Source: a bacterium (GTDB taxonomy: Bacteria > UBA10199 > 2-02-FULL-44-16 > JAAZCA01). From it: a stretch of 64,000 nucleotides of DNA. Every line of letters begins with the position of its first letter. The first letter of the stretch is position 1. The stretch lies in the NCBI GenBank assembly GCA_021810905.1, contig JAJZQH010000011.1, forward strand, positions 4,358-68,357, in the 5' to 3' direction. Shown here one piece after another: positions 1 to 47,633 of this stretch. The position numbers were made by a program, and so were the translations under genes. The notes beneath the pieces were generated by a model. That model did no database searches. It was not told where the DNA came from and saw only the letters and a program-made list of their open reading frames with translations.

Positions 1-2748
1 CGCTTCAAGCGATGAATACGATCCATCCGTGGTTATCTGCCACAGGCCGTTAGCGCCTTTGAGATTGATCATGCCATTCACGCTGGCCAGCGGAACCATG
101 TCGTTGTTGCCAAAGATATGTGGAACGCCTGACAGCCAATCCAGTTCAGTATGGAATTTGATCCCATCCTGCGGAATTATGTACATCCTTCCCTCATCCG
201 TTAGTCCGTCAGGAACTTTCAGCCCAAAGAAAATTTTACCGACCTCATTGAAATCCTGTGGGAGCGGCAGATACGCCCACCCAGGTGCTTGTGCGAGCAG
301 TTCGTTCGATATCAGCTGAGCAATCCACGCATAATGCCCAAGCGATCCTTCGGTTCCATTGCCGTAATCAACTCTCACATTGCCGTCCGAACACACGATA
401 CCGATATCGTTGTAACCGTCGCCATTATAATTGCCTATCGCGGGCCGGCTGTAATTCGAATCATCCGGATTCATCTTCAGATCGTCCGTCCACTGCGCGG
501 AATAATCCAGCACCCAGTCCCAGCCGTGCCACTCGCCCTTGCCTATGAGATTCGTGTTTGTCAGCGCCACGTAGAATTTGCCGTGCTCCTTGTCATACGC
601 CACAAAGTCCGCGCGGCCGTCTGAGTTCATATCCTCTACGTACGGCCAGACCCATTTGCCGCTGATAGGGGTGAAACTTAGCTGCAGGTCCCATGCGCCG
701 TAGTTGTCGCCGCCGCTCCCCTTACTCGACAGATCCACGGACCACTTGCCGTTCTCAAACTTCACAAGGTCCGCGCGACTGTCGCCATCAAAATCGTAGG
801 TCTTTGCGATCTTCGTGCCTGCCGGGAATACTTCTTCGTCCGGGCACGACGGATCGCTGTTTGCACCATCAAATTCCTTGCACACGATCCCCACTCCAAG
901 CTGCCGCAGCGCTACCATCTGCGATGACGTGAGTTGATCGTCGGATGCGAGCTGCGGATACTGGGAATGCATCGTCGCAAGGAATTGATCCACTTGCTGC
1001 AGGGCAACATCTATACGAGGCTGTTTTCCTATATTGCATCCGCTCGTATCCTTCTGCGTCACTCCTGAGCCCACGATGATCTCGCGCATCTTGAGCGGCA
1101 TAAGGTAGCGCTTGTGGCCGAGGATGTTCCTTGCGTAGCTCTGCACCAATGCTGCTGCGCCTCCCACCATGGCCGCCGCGGATGACGTGCCGCCGAACAT
1201 ATCAACGAAGTACGCGTTCGGATCTGTGTTCGGCGGTTTGGGGGAACTCGTGCCGTTCCATGCATAGGGACCGTAAGGATAACCCGTGGTCACCACACCC
1301 TGGCCCCAGGCAAAAGAGTTCACGCGCGTCCCGCAATTGGAGAAAGATATCTTATTTTCGTTTGCGCCTTCGGATGCGCCCACCATTATTGCGCCTGCAT
1401 CGTCCGTGGCCATGTTGTGCGCAAAGGTCCACGAACCTGTGTAGAGGTCCGGGTTATTGAGGTTCATCTGCCCGTTACCGCCGGCTTCAATGACCGTAAC
1501 TCCATATGCCGTAGCTTGCTGGATTGCGTCGTACACATCGGGCCAGAGCTCTACAGGTACACCGCCATATTCACAGGCAGCGTCCCATTCTGGCGTACAA
1601 TTAAGATTTGTGTATTTTCCAGGAAGCCCAACTTCAATAACCCATACTGATCCGGGCTCAAGATCGTTGTCGCTGTCGCTATTGACCTCGTCATGCCCGT
1701 CCGTTGAAATCCTCAAGTCGCCATCAACGCTGCTTGCCATCGATGCCATCAGATAATTTGCCGAGGGCGCAAAACCCGTCACCCCGTGGCCGTTGTCCTT
1801 TGCCATCAATATGCCGCCGACTGCCGTACCATGCGCTATCCATGAATCACAATCAGGAAGTTCTTCTGGAAACCCAGGCGCGCAATCCGGAGCATAGAGA
1901 AAATTACCTCCATTTGCCCAGGCGATCTTTTGCAGCGGCTGAAAATCTGCATGATCGAAATTCATCCCGGATTCATTATCCACCAGATACACATTCTCGC
2001 CGTGCGTTCCTGCGCTCCACGCTGCCAGCGCGTTCAGGCCGCCGCTGTTTGCCTCGTCATACAGATAACCCTGCTGGCCCGTGAGGGACGGCGTTGTGTC
2101 CAGTACACCAGCGGGAATGGGCTTGAACTGAGGATACACATACTTGACACCAGATACTGCCGAGAGCTCGCGCATGATCTTCACGGCCTCGTCCGGGTCG
2201 CCTACGTCTATCGTGTATGAAGAATTCCAATCCGGCATCTTCTGCCCGGAGAGACGCTCCAACCGCGCGCGCTGACGATCCACCTCTGCCTCGGGCGCGC
2301 TAGTCACGCGCTCGATGAGCGCTGCAGGATGCGCATCGAGCACCTGCTGCATGGGCGCCACTGCCGCGTCCTGACCCGTGATGCTAACGAGTTTGTAGAC
2401 CGCTGGCGCCTGCACGGAATCCGCGGAAACGCTCTTCTGCGATGGAGGCGCGAGCTCATCCTTCGTCACTGCGCCCTCTGCCTGCCCTTCGACTTCGCTC
2501 AGGGCACGCAGCCGTACGCCATAGGTTTCATCAAACTTCACCGCGAGTTTTCCGGAAAATGCTTCGGTATATACGAGGTCTTCAAGTTCTGTGAGCTGGC
2601 CGAGATCGGCATCAGGACCCACGGTTGCCGCGCCATCGCTCCCGCCGCTGCCGCCGCAACCGGCATACAAAAAGAGCGCGGCAATTGCACACGCGCTCGC
2701 GAGGATTATTTTTTTTGCTGTACAAACCGATAGCCGTTGGCTCTTCAT
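1..2748 (-). CDS. S8 subtilisin-like serine peptidase lipoprotein with C-terminal FG-GAP/VCBS-like repeats (partial; C-terminus lies beyond the window start)
   Basis: Translating the minus strand by hand from the ATG at 2748 gives an open frame all the way to position 1. It is absent from the ORF track because there is no stop in the window. The N-terminus MKSQRLSVCTAKKIILASACAIAALFLYAGCGG is a lipoprotein signal with an LYAGC lipobox. Subtilase motifs are present: YLVDNESGMNFDHADF (Asp), HGTAVGGIL (His) and GTSSAAAMVGGAAAL (Ser). Downstream are repeated DGD/DGR beta-propeller-like units (YDFDGDSRADLVKF, EDMNSDGRADFVAYD, GNYNGDGYNDIGIV). The RBS AAGGAGG sits 6 nt upstream of the ATG. Confidence 0.75.
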   Translation of the reverse strand, partial: MKSQRLSVCTAKKIILASACAIAALFLYAGCGGSGGSDGAATVGPDADLGQLTELEDLVYTEAFSGKLAVKFDETYGVRLRALSEVEGQAEGAVTKDELAPPSQKSVSADSVQAPAVYKLVSITGQDAAVAPMQQVLDAHPAALIERVTSAPEAEVDRQRARLERLSGQKMPDWNSSYTIDVGDPDEAVKIMRELSAVSGVKYVYPQFKPIPAGVLDTTPSLTGQQGYLYDEANSGGLNALAAWSAGTHGENVYLVDNESGMNFDHADFQPLQKIAWANGGNFLYAPDCAPGFPEELPDCDSWIAHGTAVGGILMAKDNGHGVTGFAPSANYLMASMASSVDGDLRISTDGHDEVNSDSDNDLEPGSVWVIEVGLPGKYTNLNCTPEWDAACEYGGVPVELWPDVYDAIQQATAYGVTVIEAGGNGQMNLNNPDLYTGSWTFAHNMATDDAGAIMVGASEGANENKISFSNCGTRVNSFAWGQGVVTTGYPYGPYAWNGTSSPKPPNTDPNAYFVDMFGGTSSAAAMVGGAAALVQSYARNILGHKRYLMPLKMREIIVGSGVTQKDTSGCNIGKQPRIDVALQQVDQFLATMHSQYPQLASDDQLTSSQMVALRQLGVGIVCKEFDGANSDPSCPDEEVFPAGTKIAKTYDFDGDSRADLVKFENGKWSVDLSSKGSGGDNYGAWDLQLSFTPISGKWVWPYVEDMNSDGRADFVAYDKEHGKFYVALTNTNLIGKGEWHGWDWVLDYSAQWTDDLKMNPDDSNYSRPAIGNYNGDGYNDIGIVCSDGNVRVDYGNGTEGSLGHYAWIAQLISNELLAQAPGWAYLPLPQDFNEVGKIFFGLKVPDGLTDEGRMYIIPQDGIKFHTELDWLSGVPHIFGNNDMVPLASVNGMINLKGANGLWQITTDGSYSSLEA

Positions 2749-24601: not shown

Positions 24602-24707
24602 TTAGACCTCCATTAATTACGTTTTCAATCCTGAATTGCCACTCCGGCGATGAATATTGGTGATTACTCATGTCAATCACATATCGCTTGATTCAATGTC
24701 TCCATTA

Positions 24708-24944
24708 TCAACTATTCTTCAAGCAGGTTATAATGATTAATATTCCGACGCTTAGAAGAAATATTCCGCCCACTAAGGCGACATTAATAAATACTCTCTC
24801 GGATATCTTGATTCCCCAGAGCATATAATTTGATTTTACTGTCCAACGAGCCAATCTCATGCGCATTATTATGACTGATACGCCAAACATCATAAAAAAT
24901 AGTGCGATCAATAGCCTTTGCATATCTATGCCTCCAAGTACCAT
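24708..24944 (-). CDS. small integral membrane protein (2-3 TM); putative immunity protein for the orphan rhs-CT toxin immediately upstream
   Basis: The hydrophobic segments are LLIALFFMMFGVSVIIM and INVALVGGIFLLSVGILIIITCL. It is AT-rich and sits directly 3' of the toxin module, the usual immunity position. Confidence 0.45.
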   Translation of the reverse strand: MVLGGIDMQRLLIALFFMMFGVSVIIMRMRLARWTVKSNYMLWGIKISERVFINVALVGGIFLLSVGILIIITCLKNS

Positions 24945-24956
24945 TTAAAACATCAT

Positions 24957-25283
24957 TCAAAATTCCCAGATTTCAACTACATCAAATACGGTTATGGTAA
25001 CTCCGGGTGTCACGAATCCACCTTCAACATAATCTCCATCGGTCGATTCAAGTCCAAAACCAACGGAACCTCCCCCCCAGAATCCGGCCTGAAATTCAAC
25101 ATTCCATCCCTCTGAAACTGAATCAGGAGAACCTGTGATGGAGACATTTATTGATGGAGGCATGACCCCTCCACCGATATATCCATAGATCTTGCTACCG
25201 TCGAATAACAAACCTCCAGTAAGACCAAGGCCATATCCCGCTGAAACATTAATATTAACGTATCCATTTGATATTTTATTGGT
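24957..25283 (-). other. variable toxin domain of orphan rhs-CT 1 (Gly-rich, GxxxG-type)
   Basis: The domain sequence after DPFG is NKISNGYVNINVSAGYGLGLTGGLLFDGSKIYGYIGGGVMPP...GFWGGGSVGFGLES... It is AT-rich compared with the conserved core. Confidence 0.5.
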
Positions 25284-26027
25284 TCCAAATGGATCAAATG
25301 AGTTCAGTGAATTGTTCATGACATATGCATACACATTCATCCCATCCACGTACCACTCCGGATCCCTCTGCAGGAATCTTCCCAGCTCCGGCGCATACAT
25401 GCGGTTGCGGTAGTAATACAGCCCAGTCGCCTCGTCGTATCTACGCGATGCGAAGCGGTACGCGTTGCCGATCGTGCTCTCTGTTATCACTTGACCGAGC
25501 TCATCCGTGATCGTTGCTGCTCCGTACGGATCATACGAGTAGCGCTCCACGAGGGCGCCATTCTCGTCCGTGATCGCTGCTATGTTGTTGCGCATGTCTG
25601 CGTGATAGTAATACGCGTGATTGTTTGAGATCATCGCTATCGGGCGGTCGATGCCATCATCATAGATAAAACTCGCCGTGAGCGTGCCGTCCGTGACTTC
25701 CTCTATCTCTTGCCAGCCATCGTAGATGAATTGAGTCACCGTGCCATCCGAGCGCAGCTCCGAGATGCGGCGCTTGAGGGCGTCGTATGCGTAGGACGCT
25801 ACGAAGGTATCGTTCAGGGAATCCCGCACCTCGGTCACGAGATTGCGGTCGTCGTATTCATAGCGATACTTTCCATCGTCGATGAGGTTTCCTGCCTCGT
25901 CGTAGATACATCTGTCGCTCAGAATTCTCATGGCAGTCCAACAGCCCTTAGCAAGCAGCTTGGTTGGACCATATTTTGAATCGCTAAGATCCATAATTAC
26001 CGTCTCTATTTCTCGCTCAACGTCCAA
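24957..26027 (-). CDS. orphan RHS C-terminal cassette (RHS repeat-associated core, DPxG, then a Gly-rich variable toxin domain)
   Basis: The stretch AGNLIDDGKYRYEYDDRNLVTEVRDSLNDTFVASYAYDALKRRISELRSDGTVTQF...YYYHADMRNNIAAITDENGALVERYSYDPYG...GLYYYRNRMYAPELGRFLQRDP is near-identical to the C-terminal core of the main RHS protein ending at 27915. It has DPFG and then a divergent, Gly-rich C-terminus. Confidence 0.8.
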   Translation of the reverse strand: MDVEREIETVIMDLSDSKYGPTKLLAKGCWTAMRILSDRCIYDEAGNLIDDGKYRYEYDDRNLVTEVRDSLNDTFVASYAYDALKRRISELRSDGTVTQFIYDGWQEIEEVTDGTLTASFIYDDGIDRPIAMISNNHAYYYHADMRNNIAAITDENGALVERYSYDPYGAATITDELGQVITESTIGNAYRFASRRYDEATGLYYYRNRMYAPELGRFLQRDPEWYVDGMNVYAYVMNNSLNSFDPFGTNKISNGYVNINVSAGYGLGLTGGLLFDGSKIYGYIGGGVMPPSINVSITGSPDSVSEGWNVEFQAGFWGGGSVGFGLESTDGDYVEGGFVTPGVTITVFDVVEIWEF

Positions 26028-26073
26028 ACCTGACTCGTTATGTTAAGGCAATTTTTTATTAAGAAATTGGCAA

Positions 26074-26445
26074 CTACTGCTTGTAGAAAAGTCTCTTAGA
26101 TATTTTCAGGGTTTTTGCATTGATCCAATACTGCACTTCCATCCCGATTATAGCCCTATGTTGTTTTGACATTTCTTTCTTCGAAAGCAGATACGGGTGA
26201 AAGAAAACGATGATATCGTCTCCCTCTTTATAGAGCTCGATATTGTATTTTTTTAACTCTTTTTCAGCTTTGCTCATTTCCGACGTCGTCATAAAATCAG
26301 AATACGCGACAGACCACGCATCGAGGTAAACACCGGGAAATCCATACTTAGTATTAATTTCATGCAATGACACAGTTGAACATCCCAAACAACATAACGA
26401 CACTAAGGTCGCCGCACTTATCAAGCACCTATTAATAATATTCAC
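26074..26445 (-). CDS. small lipoprotein; putative immunity protein for orphan rhs-CT 2
   Basis: The signal and lipobox are MNIINRCLISAATLVSLCCLGCS. It is AT-rich and lies directly 3' of the toxin cassette 26479..27579. Confidence 0.5.
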   Translation of the reverse strand: MNIINRCLISAATLVSLCCLGCSTVSLHEINTKYGFPGVYLDAWSVAYSDFMTTSEMSKAEKELKKYNIELYKEGDDIIVFFHPYLLSKKEMSKQHRAIIGMEVQYWINAKTLKISKRLFYKQ

Positions 26446-26478
26446 ATACCCTCCTTTGATGTAATTTGGCGAAATTCA

Positions 26479-26889
26479 TCACGGTTTTTTTGGACTCCTT
26501 GAAACCGATCCCACTTTTGTTATCTCACTTGATGAAACGTCAAAACGATACACATTCCCTTTGGGGGTTCCCAGATAGGCATCGTCATTATAATATTTTG
26601 CCAAATCTTTATCGCGAGGCGAAAAATGTTCGTTATCGTACGCCGGATTATTATCACCATGTGTATGATAGTAGGCAGTTGTTCCTGTTCCGGCCGGGGA
26701 CTTTGCGTCATACGGCTGGACTTGTTTTACGTCTCCTGCAATTGGTTCCGTATATGAATAATAATCTGCTCGTGAATGATAGATTAATCCGCCATACTCC
26801 CTACCCTCTGCAATTGACCTCAGATTAATATCTGTAACTGCTGCCGCCGCAGCATCATCTTGCGTTGGATAGTGGTCACCAGGTAGTTC
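26479..26889 (-). other. variable toxin domain of orphan rhs-CT 2 (possible JAB/MPN-like H-x-H-x11-S-x-x-D motif)
   Basis: The motif H-T-H-G-D-N-N-P-A-Y-D-N-E-H-F-S-P-R-D has the spacing of JAB metalloprotease signatures, with an upstream Glu-rich segment. Confidence 0.3.
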
Positions 26890-27579
26890 GCCAAATGGAT
26901 CAGTCCATTTTATGGGATTATTCCTTACGTATTTATACACATTCATCCCATCCGCATACCCCACAGGATCCCGCTGCAGGAATCTGCCCAGCTCTGGCGT
27001 ATACATTCGGTGACGGTAGTAATACAGCCCTGTCGCCGCGTCGTATCTACGCGATGAGAAGCGGTACGAGTTGCCGATTGTGCTCTCTGTTATCACCTGA
27101 CCAAGCTCATCTGTGATCGTCGCTGCTCCGTACGGATCGTAGCTGTATCGCTCGATGAGAGCGCCGTTCTCATCCGTGATCGCGGCGATGTTGTTTCTTG
27201 TATCCGCGTGATAGTAATACGCGTGATTGTTTGAGATCATCGCTATCGGGTGATCTATTCCGTCGTCGTAGATGTAACTCGCCGTGATGGTGTTGTTCGT
27301 GATTTCCTCTATCTCTTGCCAGCCATCATAGATGAATTGAGTCACCGTGCCATCAGAGCGTAGCTCTGATATTCGACGTTTCATCGCGTAGGATGCGGAT
27401 TCGTGAGCAACGATCCACTCGCTATCTGGATGCAAATTTATAACGCTATATGTCTTATCGCTGCGGTGCATGTTTAAGCTCTCACCTTTTGTCCAATGTC
27501 CAGACTTGACCCGTTTTCGTTTCTCTACAAAACAATATTCAACCCTTGCCGATAACGAGTCGCGACATTTTGAAGCCAC
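26479..27579 (-). CDS. orphan RHS C-terminal cassette 2 (core and DPxG, with a distinct toxin domain carrying an HxH...SxxD metal-binding-like signature)
   Basis: From aa 64 onward (YAMKRRISELRSDGTVTQFIYDGWQEIEE...YYYHADTRNNIAAITDENGALIERYSYDPYG...GLYYYRHRMYTPELGRFLQRDP...NNPIKWTDPFGE) it is homologous to the main RHS core. The first 63 aa are unrelated. The toxin part includes EGREYGGLIYHSRADYYSYTEP...AYYHTHGDNNPAYDNEHFSPRD. Confidence 0.75.
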   Translation of the reverse strand: MASKCRDSLSARVEYCFVEKRKRVKSGHWTKGESLNMHRSDKTYSVINLHPDSEWIVAHESASYAMKRRISELRSDGTVTQFIYDGWQEIEEITNNTITASYIYDDGIDHPIAMISNNHAYYYHADTRNNIAAITDENGALIERYSYDPYGAATITDELGQVITESTIGNSYRFSSRRYDAATGLYYYRHRMYTPELGRFLQRDPVGYADGMNVYKYVRNNPIKWTDPFGELPGDHYPTQDDAAAAAVTDINLRSIAEGREYGGLIYHSRADYYSYTEPIAGDVKQVQPYDAKSPAGTGTTAYYHTHGDNNPAYDNEHFSPRDKDLAKYYNDDAYLGTPKGNVYRFDVSSSEITKVGSVSRSPKKP

Positions 27580-27598
27580 TTTCTAACTAGACAGCCAT

Positions 27599-27889
27599 TC
27601 ACAGCCCCATAAGCATACGGAAATGTCTGAATATTCCGAGAAATGATGCTGCAATAAATGCACATCCAATTAAATACATGACAATTCGAGCTTCGATGTA
27701 TCGACACTTACTAATCTCTGAAAGCTTCCTTCTCGTTTTGACGATCTTGGTTTCAAACATTCCTGCGTTACAGAGCAAATTCACAGTTACCACATGGTTC
27801 TTTAGGATCAGGAACACACCAAACCCCAAAAGTGCAATCGCCGCAGCCAGCCCCATAACTGCCTTTACGATATCCATATGTCTCCTCAT
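27599..27889 (-). CDS. small membrane protein (2-3 TM); putative immunity protein for the main RHS C-terminal toxin
   Basis: Hydrophobic helices are AVMGLAAAIALLGFGVFLIL and IVMYLIGCAFIAASFLGIF. It is AT-rich and starts 26 nt after the RHS stop. Confidence 0.45.
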   Translation of the reverse strand: MRRHMDIVKAVMGLAAAIALLGFGVFLILKNHVVTVNLLCNAGMFETKIVKTRRKLSEISKCRYIEARIVMYLIGCAFIAASFLGIFRHFRMLMGL

Positions 27890-38036: not shown

Positions 38037-38346
38037 TCAAGTCCCCTGACTGACTCTCATGCGATGTATCCGGACGTATCGGCCAAAACTATCAAAAGTT
38101 GCGCGATAAATGTCCAGAGGCGAACATATATAATGATAGGGCACATGAACATTAAGCAATTGGCATGCCATTGGCCGCCCGCGCTGCCCGATTCCTAACA
38201 TAGCGATTATTAACGGTTTTTATTTCGAGATCAAAGGATGACCCGTAAGATCACTGTTCGGCTATTCGAAAAAGTGAACAGGCTGTTCAAAATACTGAAC
38301 CAGAAGGGCAATCCGTACCGAGCAAGGGTTTTGAAATGAGTTCCCG

Positions 38347-41300
38347 TTACCTCACCGTCAGCGTGGTTACCGGGTCTTCCTCGCGATAGAGTTCGATCAT
38401 GTTGGCCGCGAGCGTTTCTATCTCGTCGTCGCGCGCGCGGATGCAGCCGTGGGTGCGGGCCTCGTAGCGGTTGTTTCTGCCGGCGTGGATGAAGAGCTGC
38501 CGATTCCACGCGGTACGATTGGGGCCGTCGTGCGGCGCACCGATGCGGATGCGGATCCTGCCCTGCGATACGTTGTAGTCATCCTGCCACGTCCCTGCCC
38601 AACGCTGTCCCGTCATGACGCTTTCGCCAATGGAATAGCCCTCGAACCCGAAGCGATTGTAGAACGATTCGCGATATTCTTCGGAATAGAATTCGGGAAC
38701 TCCTATTGCGAACGTGCCGTCCGGCACGGGTCCTCTCGCGCCGATTGTGAGCGGGTCTGCCTTTGGTCTGGTCGTGTTGTTGGCCGCGTGGTATCTCGTG
38801 ATCTCTTCGTCATCCCCGTCATAGAGAATGAGCTCGTCGTTCGCGCGCTCGAATACGAGGCTCGCAAGACCAAGCGGATCGTAGAACGTGGAAGGATCTC
38901 CGCGCGCGTAGAGATACAGATTGGGCTCGCCTTCGTTCAGATCGGCCCGGCTGCTGACAAACGCGCGTCCGAACGGGTATGCGCCATAGCGCGCGGATGT
39001 TGAGAGCTGGCGATTCGGCAACGTTGCGGTCGAAGCCTCGCCCTGCCAGCGGTGATAGGAAGGCGACGGCGCGAAAGAGACAGCAGCTTCGGTTCGAAGT
39101 CCGATCTTCATGCCCAGTGGGTCCGGCTGTATAAAACGCATGAGCCTTGGATCGTAGCTTCGGTTCCGCGCGTACATCAATTCCGGATCTCCGCCGCGCA
39201 ACATGCCGGCAAAGCCGAATGGCGTGTCGCCGTGCTCGCAGCGCTCCATTGCGCCGTACGGTCCGAAGTCGCAGAGTTTGCGAATCGTTCCCTGGATTTC
39301 TTTGGCGCGGGCGGAACCTGAGCGGTCAGCTATGAAAAATGCGGCGCCTGCTGATGAGAGCGATGCGACGGGAAGCGCGGATTCATCCGCATACACGAAC
39401 TGCTCCATGCCGTTGTCGCTCGTCACCTCCGCGGCGAGCTGCCAGCCGTTCCATATCAATTCGCGGTCGACGTCCGCCGACGATTCGCCCACGCGCCTGC
39501 CCAACGCATCATATTTGTATTGCGCCATCAATCCACCGTCTTCGAGGATATCGGTGAGGCGGCCGAAGGCGTCATAGCGATATTCCCACTCGCCGTTCTG
39601 CAGGAGATTGCCGTTTGCGTCGTAAGTGAGGGCGCGTGGGATTGCCGCGCTGTCGCTCGCGATGAAACCTGATGAGGCGCTGATATCAGTCAACTCGCCC
39701 AGCGAATTGTACTTCATCTGCGTGACCGCTCCGTCCTCTTCAGATGCGATTACATTTCCAACGGCGTCATAGGAAAATCTGCGCACCCTTTGCCTCTTGT
39801 CTTCCGGAGCGCCGGAGGGCGAGTCGATTGCGGATATGAGCCTCCCCATGTAATCGCGTGAATAGACGCGCGCGACGCCGAATAGCGAATCGTCTTCCTT
39901 GCCGACTCGACCGTTTGCATCGTATTCAAACTTCCACGCGGCGAGAGTACGCCAGGCGCCCGCATAGCGCCTGAAAGTCTGTCTGCCCCATGAATCGCGC
40001 GTGAGTTCGAGCGTCAAACCCCTGCCGAAGTCTGCGTTGACCATGTTTCCGGAAGCGTCGCGCGTAATCGCTGCAATGCGCCGACTGCCGGCCAGCACCG
40101 AGCTGATTGCGCCATCGGCGTTGCGCGCAAAATAGGCGGGAACTCCGCCATAGGGCTGCTCGGTAGAGAGCCTCCCCGCATCGTCAAAACCCCGGACCAT
40201 CCACCTGTTTCCAGCGAGCTCTGCAATCGGCCTTGATAAGGAATCATAGACAAAGCGCGAGATCGCATCGTCCTCAGCTTCTTCCGGATCGTTTTCATCG
40301 ACTGCGTATATGAGTCTATCGAGCCCGTCGTATGCAAAACGCTGCTGCCGAGTGCCGATGACGCCCGCTGCGGGCACGATGTAGCGCGATGCGAGACGGC
40401 CGGCTGCGTCGTAGTCGATCAGAAGGGATGTATTGTCGCGCTGCAATACTGCGGTGACCCGGTCGGCTGCGTCGTATGAAGTGCGCCGTTCGCTCGCGTC
40501 TGCAAAACGCTCGACGATCAGCCTGTCCTGAGGGTCGTAACCGAATGCGGTGGCGTTGTTGTTGGCGTCGATTAGGCGCACGAGGTTGTTGTTCTTGTTC
40601 CACACATAGCGCGTTACGGCTTCGGATGACTTTTCCTCTCCAGAGTTATGCGCGGCGATGCGGCGGCCCAGATCATCCACGTCAAAGCGCACGAGCGATC
40701 CGTCCGGATTTGTCACAGCAACGAGGTTTCCCTGCCCATCATAGGAAAACTGCCTGGGCATTGACCAGCCGGCATTCATACGGATCAGTTTCCCCGTTCC
40801 GTTGAACGTATATTCGGTGAGGCCAAGTTTGTTATCGCCATCCGCAATGTAAGATGCAGTGACGCGACCTGCCGCGTCGCGCGCGAATACGCGACGCACT
40901 CCCGCGGGACTTGTAATTGAGAGCACGCCACCCAGGCCGTCGCGCTCCACGCTTGTGCGGTTGCCGAGCGGATCAACGAGCGCAGTCAAATTTCCTCCTG
41001 CATCGTATTCAAACAGCTCATCGAGCCAGCGCGATGCGTCGGAATCCTCACGAAACAGCCTCCGGCTTCGCTTCACCATGAGTCGCGCATCGTACTCAAG
41101 GCGTTCCTCAGCGAGCAGCGCGCCGTTTGCGTCGATCGCTCGAACCGCTACTACGCGACCCATCGCGTCGCGTTCAAATTCCTTTCTGTTGCCAAGCGCG
41201 TCAGTCTTGGCGGCGGCCTCGCCGAATCCGTTGAGCGTGTACTCGGTGCGCGCTCCGCTCCCGTCAATGAACGCCGTGACTTCTCCATCCTCGTTGCGCG

Positions 41301-44300
41301 TCACGCACTCGCGCGATCGTTCGAGAGTCCCCTCTCCTCTCACGATACATACAAGCCTCCCTTCAGCATCGTATTCGTATGCGACGCGATTTTTTTCAGG
41401 CAGCTCAATGCCAGCGAGCCTTCCCACTGCGTCATATTCATAGCGGGTAATCGCCTGCTCAGATGCGGATATCTGTACATTCGAGCTTATCACGAGATCG
41501 AGCGAATCGTATTCGAACGAATGCACGACAGGCGCTCCCTCGCGCTCTATCTCTGCGCGCACCATATTGTCGTTCGCGTCGAACGAATAGCGCACCGGAG
41601 TCATTCCTGAGCGCTGCTCGCGCACCACTTGATTGAGCGCGTTGACTGAAAATGTCGCAATTGTTCCGTCAGGCGTGGTCTGCGAAATGATATTGCCGAT
41701 CGGATCATAGTTGAAGGAGGTTGTAGCCAGTTTGAGAACGCCCGCGGCTTTTCGCTCCGACGAATCGAAGGCATCGACAATTATGGATTTCAGATATCCG
41801 CCGCCGGAATCCGTTGCGCAAGCTGTTCGGTTTTTCCTGTCTGCCGTCGCAACGATTCCATCTCCGTCCGGATCGCAGGCGGGATAATACTCGTATCGCG
41901 TCATCACGCCGCGAGCGTCCTGCTCCCCAACCGGCCTGCCGAACGCATCGTATGCATAATGCGACGTCATGTTCCAGACGGCAGCAGGTCCTGCGCGCAT
42001 ATCAATCGCTTTAAGGTTCGATGCAGAATCGTCTCCGTACTCAAATCGCTCCTCAGCGCCGTCTGCAAACGATACCCATGCGATTCGGCCAAAACACGGC
42101 TCGTGCGAAAATTTCGTCACGCGCGGTTCTCCCTTGCCTGCGGGATATTCATCCACCTCCGTAAGCAGGCCGCGCTCCGCGCCGCTGCCATATACGAAGC
42201 GCGTACACCTGCCTGAGGGGAGACAGTCCAGCGTGCGTTCGCCATCTTCATTATATTGGAATGATTCGAGGAACTTGTATGATCCATTTTTCCACAACCA
42301 TCGTCGCAGCAGATGCCCTTCGGTATCATGCTCGTAGAGTCTTGTTGCGCCCAGCTGGTCAGTGACCCATGTGCGGCCGATTGCGCCTTGCCCTTTATCG
42401 TCATGCATTGCGGATGCACCGTATTGCACGGTCATCCATGCGCCGCTTCCGAAGCGCTGTGCCGCGACACGGCCTTGCTCGTCGTAACGATTATGGAGAA
42501 AGACTCCACCTCGCGGATCCATGACCATCGTGAGCGCGTGCGCAAGAGGGGCCGGCGCGTCAGCACGTTCGTAGCGGTACGCAGTGAGCCTTCCTTTTTT
42601 GTATTCGGGAGTGGCGGGCGAACGCACCCCGATAAGCCCCTGCGAATCATCGTATTCGAATGAAATCGTCCGTCCCGCGAAATCCTCGATCGCTGCGACA
42701 AGCCCGTCGGCGCGGCGTGCAAATTCGATGCGCCTTCCTAATGCGTCTATCACCGCCGAGAGCAACCCTCTGTCGTCGTACTCGTAGGAAATCTGGTTAT
42801 TGTTGCGATCGCGTTTTGAAAGCGGCACCCCCTGCGCGTCGAATTTCGTGACCACTCCTTCGCGAGCCGTGAGTTCGTATCCGTCACTCACTCGCGTGAG
42901 CTTTGAGTACACGCCGGGCGGAGAAATAAACGCAACTCCGTCCGCCGCAAAAAACGACTTGCGCCCCTCTTCATCTATATACGTAAGCCCCTCTCTACCG
43001 CCATCGTTCCACGGCAAAAGCCGCTCCGCAAAATTGTGCGTCCATCGCCAACCGAGCTCGCCGAGGAAATCGGAGCGGCCGCGATAGGTGCGCATAAAGC
43101 GAAAATCCAAGCCTCGGCCCGGAATTACAATATCGGTCACGCTCTGCACGTATTCGCCGTTGTGCAAAAGCACGGGATCGAGCGCGCTCTCCCGCGACGG
43201 ATTGCGCGCGGGCGAACGCTCCACATCCAATATTGCGGCAGCAGGACCGAGCATGTGAGCTGCTTCGAGAACGCCCGCCGCGCCTTGCGATACGAGTTCC
43301 GCCGCCCTTTCGTTGAGATCCGCGAGGTCGCGCTTTACCTTGCCGGTGACGCCGCGCAGCGCGTCGGAAGGCCGCCAGTCGCCGGGCTTTCCGAGCAGGC
43401 CTTCGTCGATTCCAGCAAGCTTTTTAAGCTCATCCCAGTTCGCCGGCAGACCGCCCAACCCGTCGGGAAGCGCGCCCTCCGCGAGTTCGCGCGCGCTATC
43501 GAGGCCGTCCTGAAATTTTGCGATTCCGTCGCGAAGCGGATCTGTCAGCTGATTCTGAACGTATTTGAGTTCATCCTCAACGCTGCCGACTATATTATCG
43601 AGTTCGCCGCGCACTTGATCGATGGGCTTTGCGAGCAGCGCGTCGATGTTGTCCAGCTCTCCCTGAAGTTTTGAAAGCGGCTCCTTTATCTTTGCGAGCG
43701 CCGCATCGAACGAAGCGCCGGCACCGATAGATGCAGCGAGCCCGCGCGCAAGAGATGCCAACTGCATGATCGTCATATTGAGCCACTGTTTATTCTGAAT
43801 CTGCCAGACCATCACGCGCGTGACTTCGACGGCGCGCTTGAGTTCGTAGGCGTCGACCACGGGACCGCTGAACGCCCGCGCATAATGGCCAGCGGCGGTT
43901 CCGGCGAGGATTGCTGCATAGGCGGGGGTTGGAAGGCGAAAGAGCGTCTGATTCAGAAGCGACGACTGGAGTTTGTTGAGTGAGTTTCCGGGGAAATACT
44001 GCTGCGCGCGGGCGGCATATCTCTCAAACGCTTCCGGGCCGGCCTTGAGCGCCTCTATCGCCTCGGGCGGAAGGCTTCCGCCGAGCGCATCCTCTATGCG
44101 GCCGCGGATCGCAGCTACGGTTCCATCTCCGATTATCTGCGAGAGCCCCAGTGCAGCGGAGTCCGCTATGGTGCCTACGTTGAACGCCTTGTGGAGAGTG
44201 CCGCGCATGTCCGTGGGATCTATCCAGAGGGGCATGCCTGTTGAGGACATCTGCTCTTTGAGACGCTTTATTGCCGAATCGTACATCGAAGTTGCGGCTG

Positions 44301-44817
44301 CATCTATGCGTTCGTTGAGACTCATGTTGAATTCGCGGACGACGCGATCCGCTATCTCCGCAGCCTCTTTCAGATGTTCCTCTCCGATTGCATTGCCGAG
44401 CAAGTCGCGCACGATGATGTCGCGCGCTTGTTTTGGCAGCCACTCCTTGATGCGCGTCTTGAGATCTGCCGCGACCCGCGCCTTGAGCTCCGCGTCCTGT
44501 TTGAACAGCGCCGAAAAATCGAGACGAGATCCGCTGCTGCGGCCTTTGTTGATCGCATCTGCAAATGCATCGCAGAGCCATTCGCTCCCCTCTTTGGATA
44601 GCGCCTGCTGGATCGCTGCTCGTGCGCGGCCCTCGACAAAGCCCGCAACACCCTCGAGCGAATATGCGCTCGAAAGCGCGGATGAATCGGCACCGGAAAT
44701 AAACGCGGTGACCGGGCCTTGTTGCGAACTCTGAACCTCGGCTGACATAGCGTTGCCAGCGGTGAGAGCGGCCAGGGCGGAACATAATATAATGATGTGG
44801 ATTCGCAGAGATCTCAT
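38347..44817 (-). CDS. RHS/YD-repeat polymorphic toxin (2,156 aa) with an N-terminal helical region of about 530 aa and a C-terminal L,D-transpeptidase-like toxin domain
   Basis: The signal peptide is MRSLRIHIIILCSALAALTAGNAMSA. The RHS N-boundary is DPVLLHNGEYVQSVTDIVIPGRGLDFRFMRTYRGRSDFLGELGWRWTHNF. Many YD repeats follow. The core ends ...YLYARGDPSTFYDPLGL. The C-terminus has LFIHAGRNNRYEARTHGCIRARDDEIETL. Confidence 0.9.
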   Translation of the reverse strand: MRSLRIHIIILCSALAALTAGNAMSAEVQSSQQGPVTAFISGADSSALSSAYSLEGVAGFVEGRARAAIQQALSKEGSEWLCDAFADAINKGRSSGSRLDFSALFKQDAELKARVAADLKTRIKEWLPKQARDIIVRDLLGNAIGEEHLKEAAEIADRVVREFNMSLNERIDAAATSMYDSAIKRLKEQMSSTGMPLWIDPTDMRGTLHKAFNVGTIADSAALGLSQIIGDGTVAAIRGRIEDALGGSLPPEAIEALKAGPEAFERYAARAQQYFPGNSLNKLQSSLLNQTLFRLPTPAYAAILAGTAAGHYARAFSGPVVDAYELKRAVEVTRVMVWQIQNKQWLNMTIMQLASLARGLAASIGAGASFDAALAKIKEPLSKLQGELDNIDALLAKPIDQVRGELDNIVGSVEDELKYVQNQLTDPLRDGIAKFQDGLDSARELAEGALPDGLGGLPANWDELKKLAGIDEGLLGKPGDWRPSDALRGVTGKVKRDLADLNERAAELVSQGAAGVLEAAHMLGPAAAILDVERSPARNPSRESALDPVLLHNGEYVQSVTDIVIPGRGLDFRFMRTYRGRSDFLGELGWRWTHNFAERLLPWNDGGREGLTYIDEEGRKSFFAADGVAFISPPGVYSKLTRVSDGYELTAREGVVTKFDAQGVPLSKRDRNNNQISYEYDDRGLLSAVIDALGRRIEFARRADGLVAAIEDFAGRTISFEYDDSQGLIGVRSPATPEYKKGRLTAYRYERADAPAPLAHALTMVMDPRGGVFLHNRYDEQGRVAAQRFGSGAWMTVQYGASAMHDDKGQGAIGRTWVTDQLGATRLYEHDTEGHLLRRWLWKNGSYKFLESFQYNEDGERTLDCLPSGRCTRFVYGSGAERGLLTEVDEYPAGKGEPRVTKFSHEPCFGRIAWVSFADGAEERFEYGDDSASNLKAIDMRAGPAAVWNMTSHYAYDAFGRPVGEQDARGVMTRYEYYPACDPDGDGIVATADRKNRTACATDSGGGYLKSIIVDAFDSSERKAAGVLKLATTSFNYDPIGNIISQTTPDGTIATFSVNALNQVVREQRSGMTPVRYSFDANDNMVRAEIEREGAPVVHSFEYDSLDLVISSNVQISASEQAITRYEYDAVGRLAGIELPEKNRVAYEYDAEGRLVCIVRGEGTLERSRECVTRNEDGEVTAFIDGSGARTEYTLNGFGEAAAKTDALGNRKEFERDAMGRVVAVRAIDANGALLAEERLEYDARLMVKRSRRLFREDSDASRWLDELFEYDAGGNLTALVDPLGNRTSVERDGLGGVLSITSPAGVRRVFARDAAGRVTASYIADGDNKLGLTEYTFNGTGKLIRMNAGWSMPRQFSYDGQGNLVAVTNPDGSLVRFDVDDLGRRIAAHNSGEEKSSEAVTRYVWNKNNNLVRLIDANNNATAFGYDPQDRLIVERFADASERRTSYDAADRVTAVLQRDNTSLLIDYDAAGRLASRYIVPAAGVIGTRQQRFAYDGLDRLIYAVDENDPEEAEDDAISRFVYDSLSRPIAELAGNRWMVRGFDDAGRLSTEQPYGGVPAYFARNADGAISSVLAGSRRIAAITRDASGNMVNADFGRGLTLELTRDSWGRQTFRRYAGAWRTLAAWKFEYDANGRVGKEDDSLFGVARVYSRDYMGRLISAIDSPSGAPEDKRQRVRRFSYDAVGNVIASEEDGAVTQMKYNSLGELTDISASSGFIASDSAAIPRALTYDANGNLLQNGEWEYRYDAFGRLTDILEDGGLMAQYKYDALGRRVGESSADVDRELIWNGWQLAAEVTSDNGMEQFVYADESALPVASLSSAGAAFFIADRSGSARAKEIQGTIRKLCDFGPYGAMERCEHGDTPFGFAGMLRGGDPELMYARNRSYDPRLMRFIQPDPLGMKIGLRTEAAVSFAPSPSYHRWQGEASTATLPNRQLSTSARYGAYPFGRAFVSSRADLNEGEPNLYLYARGDPSTFYDPLGLASLVFERANDELILYDGDDEEITRYHAANNTTRPKADPLTIGARGPVPDGTFAIGVPEFYSEEYRESFYNRFGFEGYSIGESVMTGQRWAGTWQDDYNVSQGRIRIRIGAPHDGPNRTAWNRQLFIHAGRNNRYEARTHGCIRARDDEIETLAANMIELYREEDPVTTLTVR
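38350..38865 (-). other. C-terminal toxin domain with YkuD (L,D-transpeptidase) catalytic signature H...THGCIR
   Basis: IHAG-x9-THGCIRA-x-DDEIETL matches the YkuD His / (S/T)HGC(I/V)R active-site pattern. I verified the Cys codon at 38443-38445 by hand. Confidence 0.6.
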
Positions 44818-44982: not shown

Positions 44983-46647
44983 TCATCTACAGGAAATTGC
45001 GGACTGCTCTCCGAATGAAGCGAAGCAATTCTTTGACTGGCCTTCGGCCAGCACCACCCTCGCCTCTACGGTGCGGCCGCTCGGCGGATGCGCAACCTTC
45101 ACCGAATAGGCTCCAGGCTTCACCTTGACTCCGGCCAGCGGCGTCTCGCGCCCCTGGGCCACGCCTGAAATGGAGGCTATGCCCCAGGGCTTTGCGGTAA
45201 TGGAGATTGCAGCAGCTCCAACTCGCTTGAGAGCGAAGCTCTTCACGTAGGCGGGGCTGGCCGGCCCTAATCGAAACGATTCGGATATTGGCGCGTAACC
45301 CGCGGCAGAGAGCTCGACGCGGCAGTCGATATCGCCGCCCGTTTGGATATTTTCGATGGTAAAAGGCGTTACGATCTCGCGGCGCTCCGTGCCGAGCAGA
45401 AGAATGCCGCGCGCACCTGCGGGTGCGCTGTCGATCGCCACGGCCCCTGCGACAGCGGGCGGCACGCCGGGCGTATCAGGACGCTGCTGCACAATCTGTG
45501 CGGCAGCGCGATCCGTTGAAACGGGACGGACGATTCCCAGCGCCGATACCCTGGCATGCGGCACAAACGACATGGCGATGAACATGAAAGTTGCGGCGGC
45601 ACTTCGCCAGCTCAGCGGAAAGATGAACGAATGCCTGTGCGTCTCGGCAGGCAGAAAGCACGGCTCCATCGCGCGCGTCTTTGCGCCCGTATGCTCTACG
45701 ACATCTGCGCGCGGCGAAGTCCTCGCTGTGCCATCAGGGAACACATCATGCAGGTATGCAGCGAGATCCAGGCTGGAGCTGATCTCGCCAACCGATCGAG
45801 CGGCACGCCGTACGTCGGAGAGCATTTCCGCTGCGCTCTGATAGCGCGTCTCCGCCCTTGGCGAAAGTGCGAGCATGATAGTCGCGCGCAGCTCCGCGGA
45901 AAGCCTCTCGATTCCCGCGAGTTTGATCTCGGCGTGCGCCACCGTGCGCAAAAGTTCGACGTCCGTCTCGCCATCAAATAGCCGCCGGCCGGTGAGCAAC
46001 TCGTACAGCAAGATGCCGCACGCGAAGATATCCGCGCGCGCGTCGATCTGTTCGCCTCGCGCTTGCTCCGGCGCCATGTAGGCGTACTTGCCGCGGATCT
46101 GGCCGGCCGTGGTGAATCGCGTGCGATGCGAGCCCTTTGCGATTCCGAAATCCGTGACCTTCACCTCGCCATTCCACGAGAGTAGTATGTTCGAAGGCGA
46201 TATGTCCCTGTGCACTATTCCCAGCGGCCGTCCCGAGGCATCCTCACACCGGTGTGCGAATTCGAGCGCCGTGAGCACCTGGCTTACGATGTAGAGCGCG
46301 TGCGGAGCGTCAAGCGGGGCGGGCTCGCGAATGATGTGGGTGAGGAGCCTGCCGCAATCGATTCCGTCCACAAACTCCATGGCGATGAACGGAGTGCTAT
46401 CCTCGCTCCCGAGCTCGTAGACCTGGACGATCGATTGGTGCGCGAGCAGACAGAGCACGTTCGCCTCGTCCACGAGCATGTGCCTGAGTTCGTCGTTTTC
46501 GTCCCATGAAGGCAGGAGCTTCTTGATGGCAACGGTCTTGATGAACCCGCTGTCGGACGTGAGCAGCGCGCGATACACCTCGGCCGTGCCGCCGTTGGCA
46601 ACTTTTTCAACCAGAGTGTACCGCCCGAATCTGCATGGAAGGTTCAT
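44983..46647 (-). CDS. Ser/Thr protein kinase (Hanks-type) with a transmembrane segment and a C-terminal PEGA-like domain
   Basis: Kinase motifs are ANGGTAEVY...VAIKKL (ATP site), IVHRDISPSNILL (catalytic loop), DFGIAK and YMAPEQ. A hydrophobic segment is FIFPLSWRSAAATFMFIAMSF. The C-terminus ISITAKPWGIASISGVAQGRETPLAGVKVKPGAYSVKVA is PEGA-like. The start is the ATG at 46647 (MNLPCRFGRYTLVEK). Confidence 0.85.
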   Translation of the reverse strand: MNLPCRFGRYTLVEKVANGGTAEVYRALLTSDSGFIKTVAIKKLLPSWDENDELRHMLVDEANVLCLLAHQSIVQVYELGSEDSTPFIAMEFVDGIDCGRLLTHIIREPAPLDAPHALYIVSQVLTALEFAHRCEDASGRPLGIVHRDISPSNILLSWNGEVKVTDFGIAKGSHRTRFTTAGQIRGKYAYMAPEQARGEQIDARADIFACGILLYELLTGRRLFDGETDVELLRTVAHAEIKLAGIERLSAELRATIMLALSPRAETRYQSAAEMLSDVRRAARSVGEISSSLDLAAYLHDVFPDGTARTSPRADVVEHTGAKTRAMEPCFLPAETHRHSFIFPLSWRSAAATFMFIAMSFVPHARVSALGIVRPVSTDRAAAQIVQQRPDTPGVPPAVAGAVAIDSAPAGARGILLLGTERREIVTPFTIENIQTGGDIDCRVELSAAGYAPISESFRLGPASPAYVKSFALKRVGAAAISITAKPWGIASISGVAQGRETPLAGVKVKPGAYSVKVAHPPSGRTVEARVVLAEGQSKNCFASFGEQSAISCR

Positions 46648-46803
46648 GGCAGACCTATTATAATGATAACGGGATCTAGATAAGCAAATGGCGTGCCACC
46701 GGGTAGGATATAAAAAACGCAATAGTTTCAACGGATATAACGCGGCAAGAAATTAAAACCTGTTCGCGGAAGAACACACATGTGCGGACAGCTGCGCTAT
46801 TTT

Positions 46804-46964: not shown

Positions 46965-47633
46965 TTGCTTATGCTATTCGGCATGGGCAGACCACTTCGA
47001 ATCCTGCAGGCTGAATATCCATACCATGTCACTACCAGGACAAATGGCAGGGTCTTTGTCTTCAAGAAGTGGACGTACAAGATCATCATCAATGTCCTAG
47101 TAGAGGCTGCAAAGCGCTTTGACGTGCATATTCATCACTTCAAGATGATGACCAATCACTATCATCTCACGCTCACGACACCGATAGCCAACATCAGCGA
47201 TATCCTGTGGTTCATCAACAATCAGATCGCGAAAAAATACAACCGGAGGATGGGGATCACGGGGCATCTTTGGGGCGAGAGGTTTCATTCGACTATCATC
47301 GAGACGGATAAACACGCCGTGAGATGCGTAATTTATCTCTATACGAACGGGGTGAGAGCGGGAATGTGCAACCGTGCATCAGAGGACGAGCAGTTGAGCA
47401 CGTTTGAGTTTTATGCGCGCGGGAAGAAGGTAGAGTTTATTGTAACTGAGGACGATGTGTATCTGATGCTTGGCAAGAATCGGAGAGAGCGGCAGGAGGA
47501 GTTTGTGAGGCTCGTAGATCAGCCGATGGATGAGGAGGAGATCGAGGCGATCCGCAGCGGTCTTCGAAAGTTATTTTACGGGTCAGCGGATTTCGTCGAA
47601 CGCATGAAGGCGAGGTATTTGAACAGGCAATAG
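46965..47633 (+). CDS. IS200/IS605-family HUH Y1 transposase-like protein (REP-associated tyrosine transposase, RAYT-like)
   Basis: The HUH motif is HFKMMTNHYHLTL, and a conserved Tyr lies in YLYTNGVRAG. The protein is about 220 aa, typical of RAYT/IS200-like TnpA, and is flanked by inverted REP-like repeats. Confidence 0.75.
   Translation: MLMLFGMGRPLRILQAEYPYHVTTRTNGRVFVFKKWTYKIIINVLVEAAKRFDVHIHHFKMMTNHYHLTLTTPIANISDILWFINNQIAKKYNRRMGITGHLWGERFHSTIIETDKHAVRCVIYLYTNGVRAGMCNRASEDEQLSTFEFYARGKKVEFIVTEDDVYLMLGKNRRERQEEFVRLVDQPMDEEEIEAIRSGLRKLFYGSADFVERMKARYLNRQ

Follow-up and report, generated by a model that had tools for sequence, protein, structure and literature searches.

A predicted YkuD-fold L,D-peptidase as the fixed C-terminal domain of an RHS protein family without a recognisable immunity gene

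L,D-peptidase domains have been described on RHS proteins before. In 2012, Zhang, de Souza, Anantharaman, Iyer and Aravind catalogued the Tox-LD-peptidase domain on RHS proteins, with Imm16/DUF2750 and Imm57 as immunity partners, delta-proteobacteria and Sec-type (type II secretion system, 'T2SS') export listed, and peptidoglycan cross-links as the predicted target (PMC3482391). Tlde1/Tlde1a (DUF2778, PF10908), characterised in 2020-2022, is a Salmonella type VI secretion system (T6SS) effector with L,D-carboxypeptidase and transpeptidase-exchange activity, and 11% of the Tae7 (Tlde1c) family is fused to Rhs (387/3,510 genomes) (bioRxiv 10.1101/2020.02.18.954545; PMC9638812). In Rhs proteins, the boundary that precedes the C-terminal domain (CT) is defined by the motif PxxxxDPxGL (PMC8636562). 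Here, we describe RHS-2, an RHS gene whose CT is predicted to be a YkuD-fold L,D-peptidase. The gene lies in a stretch of 64,000 nucleotides (hereafter the window, to which all coordinates refer) from contig JAJZQH010000011.1 of assembly GCA_021810905.1, a bacterium of the GTDB lineage UBA10199.

RHS-2 (38347..44817, minus strand) is intact and encodes 2156 aa, as read from the open reading frame (ORF) list and its translation. Pfam recognises 15 RHS_repeat stretches (E 6.8e-68) and DUF6531, and NCBIfam recognises YD_repeat and Rhs_assc_core. These matches place an RHS/YD-repeat cage, with an N-plug (DUF6531) and a C-terminal aspartyl-protease plug, at 38881..43152 (minus). The boundary motif GDPSTFYDPLGL (aa 1973-1984) fits PxxxxDPxGL; because it ends at aa 1984, the CT comprises aa 1985-2156 (172 aa; 38350..38865, minus).

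A preliminary description, made from the sequence alone, had proposed that RHS-2 ends in a YkuD-like domain with the same coordinates, and profile and fold comparisons both bear this out. Compared alone with Pfam, the CT matches YkuD (PF03734) above the cut-off (30.1 bits, gathering score 23.4; E 8.7e-7) over profile positions 19-138 of 146, and YkuD is matched by 22/23 family CTs. No match to Tlde1_dom (DUF2778, PF10908) was obtained in Pfam with the window CT at E <=1, and the weak matches to this family in 9/23 relatives (best E 0.0038) are always weaker than those to YkuD. An AlphaFold2 model built on an alignment of 23 sequences (the CT and 22 relatives) reached a predicted local distance difference test (pLDDT) of 96.7 and a predicted template modelling score (pTM) of 0.92; it was used instead of a model from a two-sequence alignment, which was discarded at pLDDT 52. 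The top 35 Foldseek matches of the model all have the YkuD fold, and the best solved matches are all L,D-transpeptidases (Ldts) or L,D-carboxypeptidases, with Tlde1a at rank 1 (E 3.8e-6, TM 0.54), followed by Bd1075 and Bacillus subtilis YkuD. The model displays the YkuD beta-sandwich and is structurally similar to Tlde1a. When the PDB was searched by sequence, no meaningful match was obtained with either the CT or the family profile; the sole match, to an acetyltransferase (E 0.017), was judged spurious.

The catalytic residues are conserved throughout the family. His2111 (CT residue 127; codon 38485..38487, minus) and Cys2125 (CT residue 141; codon 38443..38445, minus) are invariant in 23/23 family members, and in the alignment of the 23 CTs the invariant positions are H127, T138, G140, C141 and R143 (CT numbering). 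The motif IHAG(127)...RTHGCIR(141) thereby follows the pattern H-x(n)-[S/T]-x-G-C-h-R. The motif IHAG...THGCIRARDDEIETL named in the preliminary description is present, but of its histidines only that of IHAG is invariant, together with the cysteine; the second one, in 'THGC' directly before G-C, varies among H, L, M, W, Y, F, Q, E or K. His and Cys are 14 residues apart, a shorter spacing than the 16-21 of classical Ldts. The family further carries a specific insert of ~50 residues (about CT 56-105), which is absent from the weaker, canonical-type matches; these align in two separate stretches. Because of the Pfam match, the fold obtained with AlphaFold2 and Foldseek and the invariant His-Cys dyad, the CT is, as judged from sequence and model, a divergent L,D-peptidase of the YkuD superfamily with an intact dyad. 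By analogy, it would apply acyl-enzyme chemistry to the L,D bond of peptidoglycan stem peptides.

The N-terminal part of RHS-2 points to export. By inspection, aa 1-23 (MRSLRIHIIILCSALAALTAGNA; 44749..44817, minus) read as a Sec-type signal peptide, and from this N-terminus we take RHS-2 to be Sec-exported. The gene call on the source contig starts 23 codons later than the longest ORF (2133 aa) and loses the signal peptide; the N-termini of full-length relatives, with their signal-like peptides, support the upstream ATG. The signal peptide is followed by a helical, family-specific N-terminal domain (aa 24-545; 43183..44748, minus). This domain of ~520 aa has no match in Pfam or the PDB, bar weak apolipoprotein-like amphipathic helices at aa 370-520, which were found in 7/10 family members. 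Hydrophobic Ala/Gly-rich helices are seen around aa 296-370. The N-terminal domain of the family may be associated with membranes.

Candidate autocleavage motifs flank the cage. A regular-expression search located DPVLLHNGE (aa 547-555; 43153..43179, minus) at the start of the DUF6531 plug. It is of the D-P-V-x4-G-E type and resembles D-PVYVASGE / PVSMVTGE of Rhs1 (PMC8636562); cleavage at this site in RHS-2 is predicted. In the aspartyl-protease plug, a motif search found a first DPLG motif at aa 1899-1903 (39109..39123, minus) and a second motif, DPLGL, at aa 1980-1984 (38866..38880, minus), the predicted C-terminal autocleavage site. The cleavage motifs thus read as intact. The cage, N-plug and PxxxxDPxGL motif of Rhs polymorphic toxins are therefore all found in RHS-2, but not the DPLG spacing of ~17 residues: its two DPLG motifs are 76 aa apart, compared with 17 in canonical Rhs1 (PMC8636562). 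The insert between them (aa 1899-1984; 38881-39123, minus; …SYHRWQGEASTATLPNRQLSTSARYGAYPF…) is common to the relatives P0001 and L004.

To place RHS-2 among its relatives, we ran a profile search with the CT over 1.84 billion representative proteins, so that the relatives are selected by their CT. It found 70 relatives of the CT, ~20 of which form the C-termini of proteins of 1,700-2,170 aa. The signal-like peptide and the ~520-aa N-terminal domain are present in 15/15 full-length relatives, the domain being 30-55% identical to that of RHS-2, and full-length alignments of RHS-2 to the RHS genes of L003, L005, L006 and L007 show 32-43% identity. Other searches yielded less: a word-indexed protein search returned one relative for the CT alone and two fragments only for the N-terminal domain, and a scan of a genome collection returned one partial locus, L001, from a Deltaproteobacteria metagenome-assembled genome (MAG). 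RHS-2 thus appears to be a member of a small, conserved, non-polymorphic family of uncultured bacteria, one of which is labelled Deltaproteobacteria, and N-terminal domain, cage and enzyme appear to be inherited together.

The variability that marks the CTs of Rhs polymorphic toxins was not found: every recovered relative of the N-terminal domain has the same CT, in a set of relatives that is CT-selected. The composition of the CT is native, with no drop relative to the cage in GC content or in GC content at third codon positions (GC3); GC/GC3 is 0.605/0.756 in the CT, 0.581/0.639 in the cage and 0.608/0.708 in the neighbouring kinase gene. With a CT that is fixed across the family and compositionally native, RHS-2 appears unlike a polymorphic toxin in its behaviour. 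The role of 'effector against competitors' is therefore one that we infer for RHS-2, and a non-kin or non-toxin role is a live alternative.

We then consider immunity. The preliminary description had noted no recognisable immunity gene before the next RHS gene, RHS-3, and no ORF of 60 aa or more in the 310-bp gap between the two (38037..38346), and both observations hold. No ORF of at least 60 aa lies wholly inside the gap; an ORF scan gives only ORFs of 54 aa (38037..38201, minus), 31 aa (38057..38152, minus; hydrophobic), 44 aa (38064..38198, plus) and 33 aa (38238..38339, plus). An arginine-rich ORF of 92 aa (38231..38509, minus) overlaps the end of RHS-2 out of frame and was rejected. A small gap ORF with a ribosome-binding site, also envisaged in the preliminary description, did not emerge, since neither the gap ORFs nor the 92-aa ORF has a Shine-Dalgarno-like sequence at a usable distance and the 54-aa and 31-aa gap ORFs have no counterpart in related loci. 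The three small ORFs scanned (36, 54 and 92 aa) have no Pfam match, none of the four gap ORFs and the 92-aa ORF (0/5) is present as a called protein in a collection of 15 billion proteins, and no gene is called in the gap on the source contig (ENA ERZ27237050 k141_1238644, 143.5 kb).

The gap is probably the promoter region of RHS-3. It contains two sigma-70-like sites on the minus strand, and no terminator and no Rfam match was found in it. Composition breaks at the RHS-2 stop codon, from GC 0.605 in the CT to 0.458 in the gap. RHS-3 starts with GTG at 38036, preceded by AGGGGA, and its N-terminus is signal-peptide-like. On the opposite strand of the CT, an antisense ORF of 184 aa (38449..39003, plus) looks 'conserved' in six loci; since its counterparts vary in length between 72 and 253 aa, it was taken for a shadow of the conserved sense frame and rejected.

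Homologous pairs of CT and immunity gene were likewise sought in 11 related loci, and no gene is conserved 3' of the RHS gene; its neighbour is either absent or an unrelated gene. More specifically, the RHS gene is followed by a Ser/Thr kinase gene after 108 bp in L003 and L002 and after 188 bp in L006, by a convergent DedA gene in L004 and in L011, and by an S8-type protease gene after 355 bp in L009. A single ORF precedes the S8 protease gene in L005 (82 aa, coiled-coil) and in L007 and L008 (213 aa, multi-transmembrane). The downstream gene encodes a 207-aa repeat protein in L013, an ORF6N protein on the P0003 contig and a 392-aa protein on the P0001 contig. The readable downstream ORFs, P0003 and P0001 contigs left out, are mutually unrelated. 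Small ORFs upstream of the RHS gene in L006, L007, L011 and L013 were rejected as immunity candidates, being neither homologous to each other nor present in the window. No Imm-family domain, including Imm16/DUF2750 and Imm57, occurs among the window proteins scanned against Pfam. The RHS-2 locus thus has no cognate immunity gene of the kind known for Rhs toxins and Tox-LD-peptidase or of the Tldi1 type. The preliminary description had left immunity as missing, very small or encoded elsewhere. Comparison with related loci favours the first of these, absence as a family trait, over a very small ORF in the gap.

The constant partner of the RHS gene is a Ser/Thr protein kinase. In the window, the kinase gene (44983..46731, minus; Pfam Pkinase 9.1e-38) encodes a C-terminus with a PEGA-like match of 16.7 bits, below the 20.8-bit cut-off. 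A kinase orthologue adjoins the RHS gene in 8/10 distinct loci with flanks (the window, L001, L003, L005, L006, L011, L012 and L013). The orthologues are 41-59% identical and lie upstream of the RHS gene in most loci and downstream in two. The source-contig call (554 aa) puts the start of the window kinase 28 codons downstream of that of the longest ORF (region 46648-46731, minus). Beside the kinase gene, and divergent from it, is an IS200-type Y1 transposase gene (46965-47633, plus; Pfam Y1_Tnp E 1e-9). An S8 protease/FG-GAP gene (1..2748, minus; tblastn and blastp) runs off the window. Its orthologues (58%, 43% and 31% identity) are found 3' of the RHS gene in L005, L007 and L009, directly or after one small ORF, and the window gene lies 35.6 kb downstream of RHS-2. 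Furthermore, a DedA gene recurs in L004, L007 and L011, and core genes (rpoD, ftsK, gyrB, rluD) surround the RHS loci of relatives.

RHS-3 (27915..38036, minus, 3373 aa) offers an internal comparison, as it carries what read as textbook signs of the classical polymorphic-toxin layout: a low-GC tip, small membrane-protein genes and orphan modules. GC3 is 0.389 in its CT and 0.732 in its cage, and its DPxG motifs are 18 residues apart, the canonical spacing. The gene is followed on the minus strand by an array of toxin, immunity and orphan ORFs (23543-27877). This begins with a 92-aa ORF with two transmembrane segments directly after RHS-3 (27599-27877) and continues with an orphan RHS-CT with DUF4329 (26479-27579), a 123-aa lipoprotein ORF (26074-26445), a second orphan RHS-CT (24957-26027) and a 78-aa ORF with two transmembrane segments (24708-24944), and a 347-aa ORF is its last member. 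Since immunity-type genes are revealed after RHS-3, the same gene caller would show them in the same genome after RHS-2, where there are none.

RHS-3 has further features of its own. Its CT is glycine-rich and may target membranes. The protein consists of two RHS units in tandem: a degenerate core (aa 1449-1491; …RFISPDPL…NNPFGSRDIFGW) that lacks DPxGL closes the first YD-repeat region, and a Gly/Asp/Ser-rich linker joins this core to a complete second cage, from the N-plug DPITLHNAE (aa 1714) to DPVGY(3184)…DPYGL(3207). Because GC is 0.47 in the first half of RHS-3 and 0.60 in the second, this layout suggests a chimera. RHS-3 is part of 35.6 kb of mosaic-GC DNA (2749-38346; GC 0.43-0.61) between RHS-2 and the S8/FG-GAP orthologue. 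The segment also holds a second S8 protease (1306 aa), a 3231-aa FlgD_ig/Big_13 protein, an OmpA-family gene and a histidine kinase/response regulator pair. No direct or inverted repeats of at least 11 nt were found to flank it. In L005, the gene order is kinase, RHS, 82-aa ORF and S8/FG-GAP protease.

The CT also has homologues that stand alone. Two of ~175 aa (regions 5486-6525 of L014 and 5472-6531 of L016), from Bacillota and Eremiobacterota MAGs, share 30-39% identity with the CT along its full length, family-specific insert included. They lack a signal peptide and are named 'L,D-transpeptidase' at NCBI. In these two distant genomes, each gene directly follows one for a ~172-aa protein composed of a zinc ribbon and an acidic helical part, with overlapping stop and start codons. 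This zinc-ribbon partner was rejected as an immunity factor, as neither the window nor any of the RHS loci contains a counterpart. A separate set, P0028-P0032, consists of very acidic standalone proteins that start exactly at the CT boundary (MA[ES]L[VI]FSR…) and keep the N-terminal strands and the catalytic end, whereas the family-specific insert is largely missing. These proteins may represent the toxin domain in an orphan form or in one that is secreted independently.

Taken together, we consider it probable that RHS-2 is a Sec-exported cage with a YkuD-fold L,D-peptidase as cargo, in a kinase-linked family in which the absence of an immunity gene is a family trait rather than the result of a loss at this locus or of a small ORF having been missed. 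We hypothesize that, by analogy with Rhs and Tc proteins, the cage would cleave itself behind DPLGL(1984) and probably at DPVLLHNGE(547) as well, and that this self-cleavage would free the CT enzyme (His2111, Cys2125). The freed CT would then attack the L,D bond of peptidoglycan stem peptides, either trimming them as an L,D-carboxypeptidase or exchanging D-amino acids, as in Tlde1, Csd6, Pgp2 and Bd1075. On this model, RHS-2 would be used against other cells.

Several observations weigh against this model. The YkuD fold is also that of non-toxic housekeeping transpeptidases, of carboxypeptidases that determine cell shape and of DpaA, an amidase that detaches Lpp. The lack of both immunity and CT polymorphism argues against a classical kin-competition toxin, and neither a secretion system nor an outer-membrane translocator for RHS-2 was seen among the window genes scanned. 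The standalone homologues, without a signal peptide and paired with a cytoplasmic zinc-ribbon protein, leave room for a cytoplasmic or non-peptidoglycan substrate. In addition, the comparison covers ~11 related loci, mostly fragmentary metagenome contigs.

Possible, if unlikely, is that RHS-2 is a conserved, kinase-controlled envelope device of a deltaproteobacterial-type lineage, in which the caged L,D-peptidase serves to remodel the cell wall of the producer itself, of prey or of another species. Such a device would not be a weapon against kin and would therefore need no immunity. The conservation of the whole protein with its fixed CT would fit, as would the core-genome surroundings of the relatives, the adjacency of the kinase orthologue in differing gene orders and the recurrence of S8 protease and DedA genes nearby. 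However, we know of no precedent for an RHS cage with a housekeeping enzyme as cargo, and the part given to the kinase is purely conjectural. Moreover, encapsulation with autoproteolytic release is a hallmark of toxin delivery (PMC8636562).

Somewhat less likely is a classical antibacterial polymorphic toxin that lost its immunity gene, or had it displaced, through insertion of the 35.6-kb RHS-3 segment immediately behind the RHS-2 stop codon, or whose immunity gene is encoded elsewhere in the genome. The fall in GC from 0.605 to 0.458 lies exactly at the RHS-2 stop codon, and the S8/FG-GAP gene is near the RHS gene in L005, L007 and L009, yet 35.6 kb off in the window. Small ORFs do occur downstream in L005 (82 aa), L007 (213 aa, multi-transmembrane) and L013 (207 aa), but they are unrelated to one another, and in five other loci the RHS gene is followed by a conserved or convergent neighbour with nothing encoded in between. 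The CT itself is neither polymorphic nor set off by a GC discontinuity, and no Imm-family match was found among the window proteins scanned against Pfam.

We regard as improbable a cytoplasmic activity of the CT, or one directed at a substrate other than the mature sacculus, such as nucleotide- or lipid-linked peptidoglycan precursors or another thiol-peptidase substrate. Translational coupling of the signal-less standalone homologues to the zinc-ribbon protein in two distant MAGs would agree with it, and most characterised Rhs CTs act in the cytoplasm of the target (PMC8636562). Yet all characterised YkuD-fold enzymes in the fold searches act outside the cytoplasm, on peptidoglycan or peptidoglycan-linked Lpp, and RHS-2 itself has a Sec signal peptide. 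Finally, a micro-ORF of the gap, 54 aa (38037..38201) or 31 aa (38057..38152), both minus, is a most implausible immunity factor: both ORFs exist, the 31-aa product MFMCPIIIYVRLWTFIAQLLIVLADTSGYIA could span a membrane and small membrane immunity proteins adjoin RHS-3, but neither start is preceded by a Shine-Dalgarno sequence, neither ORF is called among the 15 billion proteins or on the source contig or has a counterpart in any related locus, hydrophobic ORFs arise by chance in AT-rich DNA, and the 54-aa ORF encodes neither a signal peptide nor a membrane segment, though the enzyme would act in the periplasm.

Compared with the domain call, the more useful result is the negative one: immunity absent family-wide, a fixed cargo and a Ser/Thr kinase as constant partner. 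If confirmed, the family would provide a clean case in which to ask how a producer without immunity tolerates a peptidoglycan-active RHS cargo, be it through encapsulation alone, the chemistry of its own wall or target exclusivity, and whether RHS cages have roles beyond kin competition. If instead RHS-2 is an envelope device, RHS encapsulation would have a function outside the polymorphic toxin-immunity paradigm. The CT with its insert of ~50 residues also represents a compact new L,D-peptidase scaffold for structure-function work.

Compared with Tox-LD-peptidase, RHS-2 likewise combines RHS repeats with a C-terminal L,D-peptidase containing H, S/T and C and, by inspection, with Sec-type export. 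Tox-LD-peptidase is polymorphic and has linked immunity; in RHS-2, an immunity gene is neither present nor conserved, the CT is fixed and compositionally native, and the whole protein is conserved, the novel N-terminal domain included. With Photorhabdus laumondii Rhs1 and the T6SS Rhs cages (PMC8636562), RHS-2 shares the YD-repeat cage, the N-plug of the D-P-V-x4-G-E type and the aspartyl-protease plug ending in DPLGL. It differs from Rhs1 in having no prePAAR/PAAR region, Eag chaperone, VgrG or immunity gene, in its DPLG spacing (76 vs 17), and in an N-terminus made of a Sec signal peptide and a 520-aa helical domain; no PAAR or T6SS domain was found in RHS-2 or in the window genes scanned.

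The comparison with Tlde1 is similarly mixed. Both have a YkuD-derived fold as cargo, sometimes on Rhs in the case of Tlde1, with a His-Cys spacing shorter than in classical Ldts. This spacing is 14 in the CT and 10 in Tlde1a (H121, C131), and RHS-2 has no Tlde1_dom match, T6SS context, PAAR or Tldi1-type immunity, its export being, by inspection, Sec-dependent. Csd6 (Helicobacter pylori), Pgp2 (Campylobacter jejuni) and Bd1075 (Bdellovibrio bacteriovorus) occur free in the periplasm, carry an additional NTF2-like domain and are not RHS cargo, and the CT is only 14-16% identical to these housekeeping L,D-carboxypeptidases. The RHS-2 CT subfamily is distinct from Tlde1/DUF2778 and rare (~20 clusters in 1.84 billion representatives), with no solved relative detectable by sequence. 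The combination of an RHS cage with an L,D-peptidase was already known in 2012, and again in 2020, and what the domain call adds to it is a divergent subfamily only.

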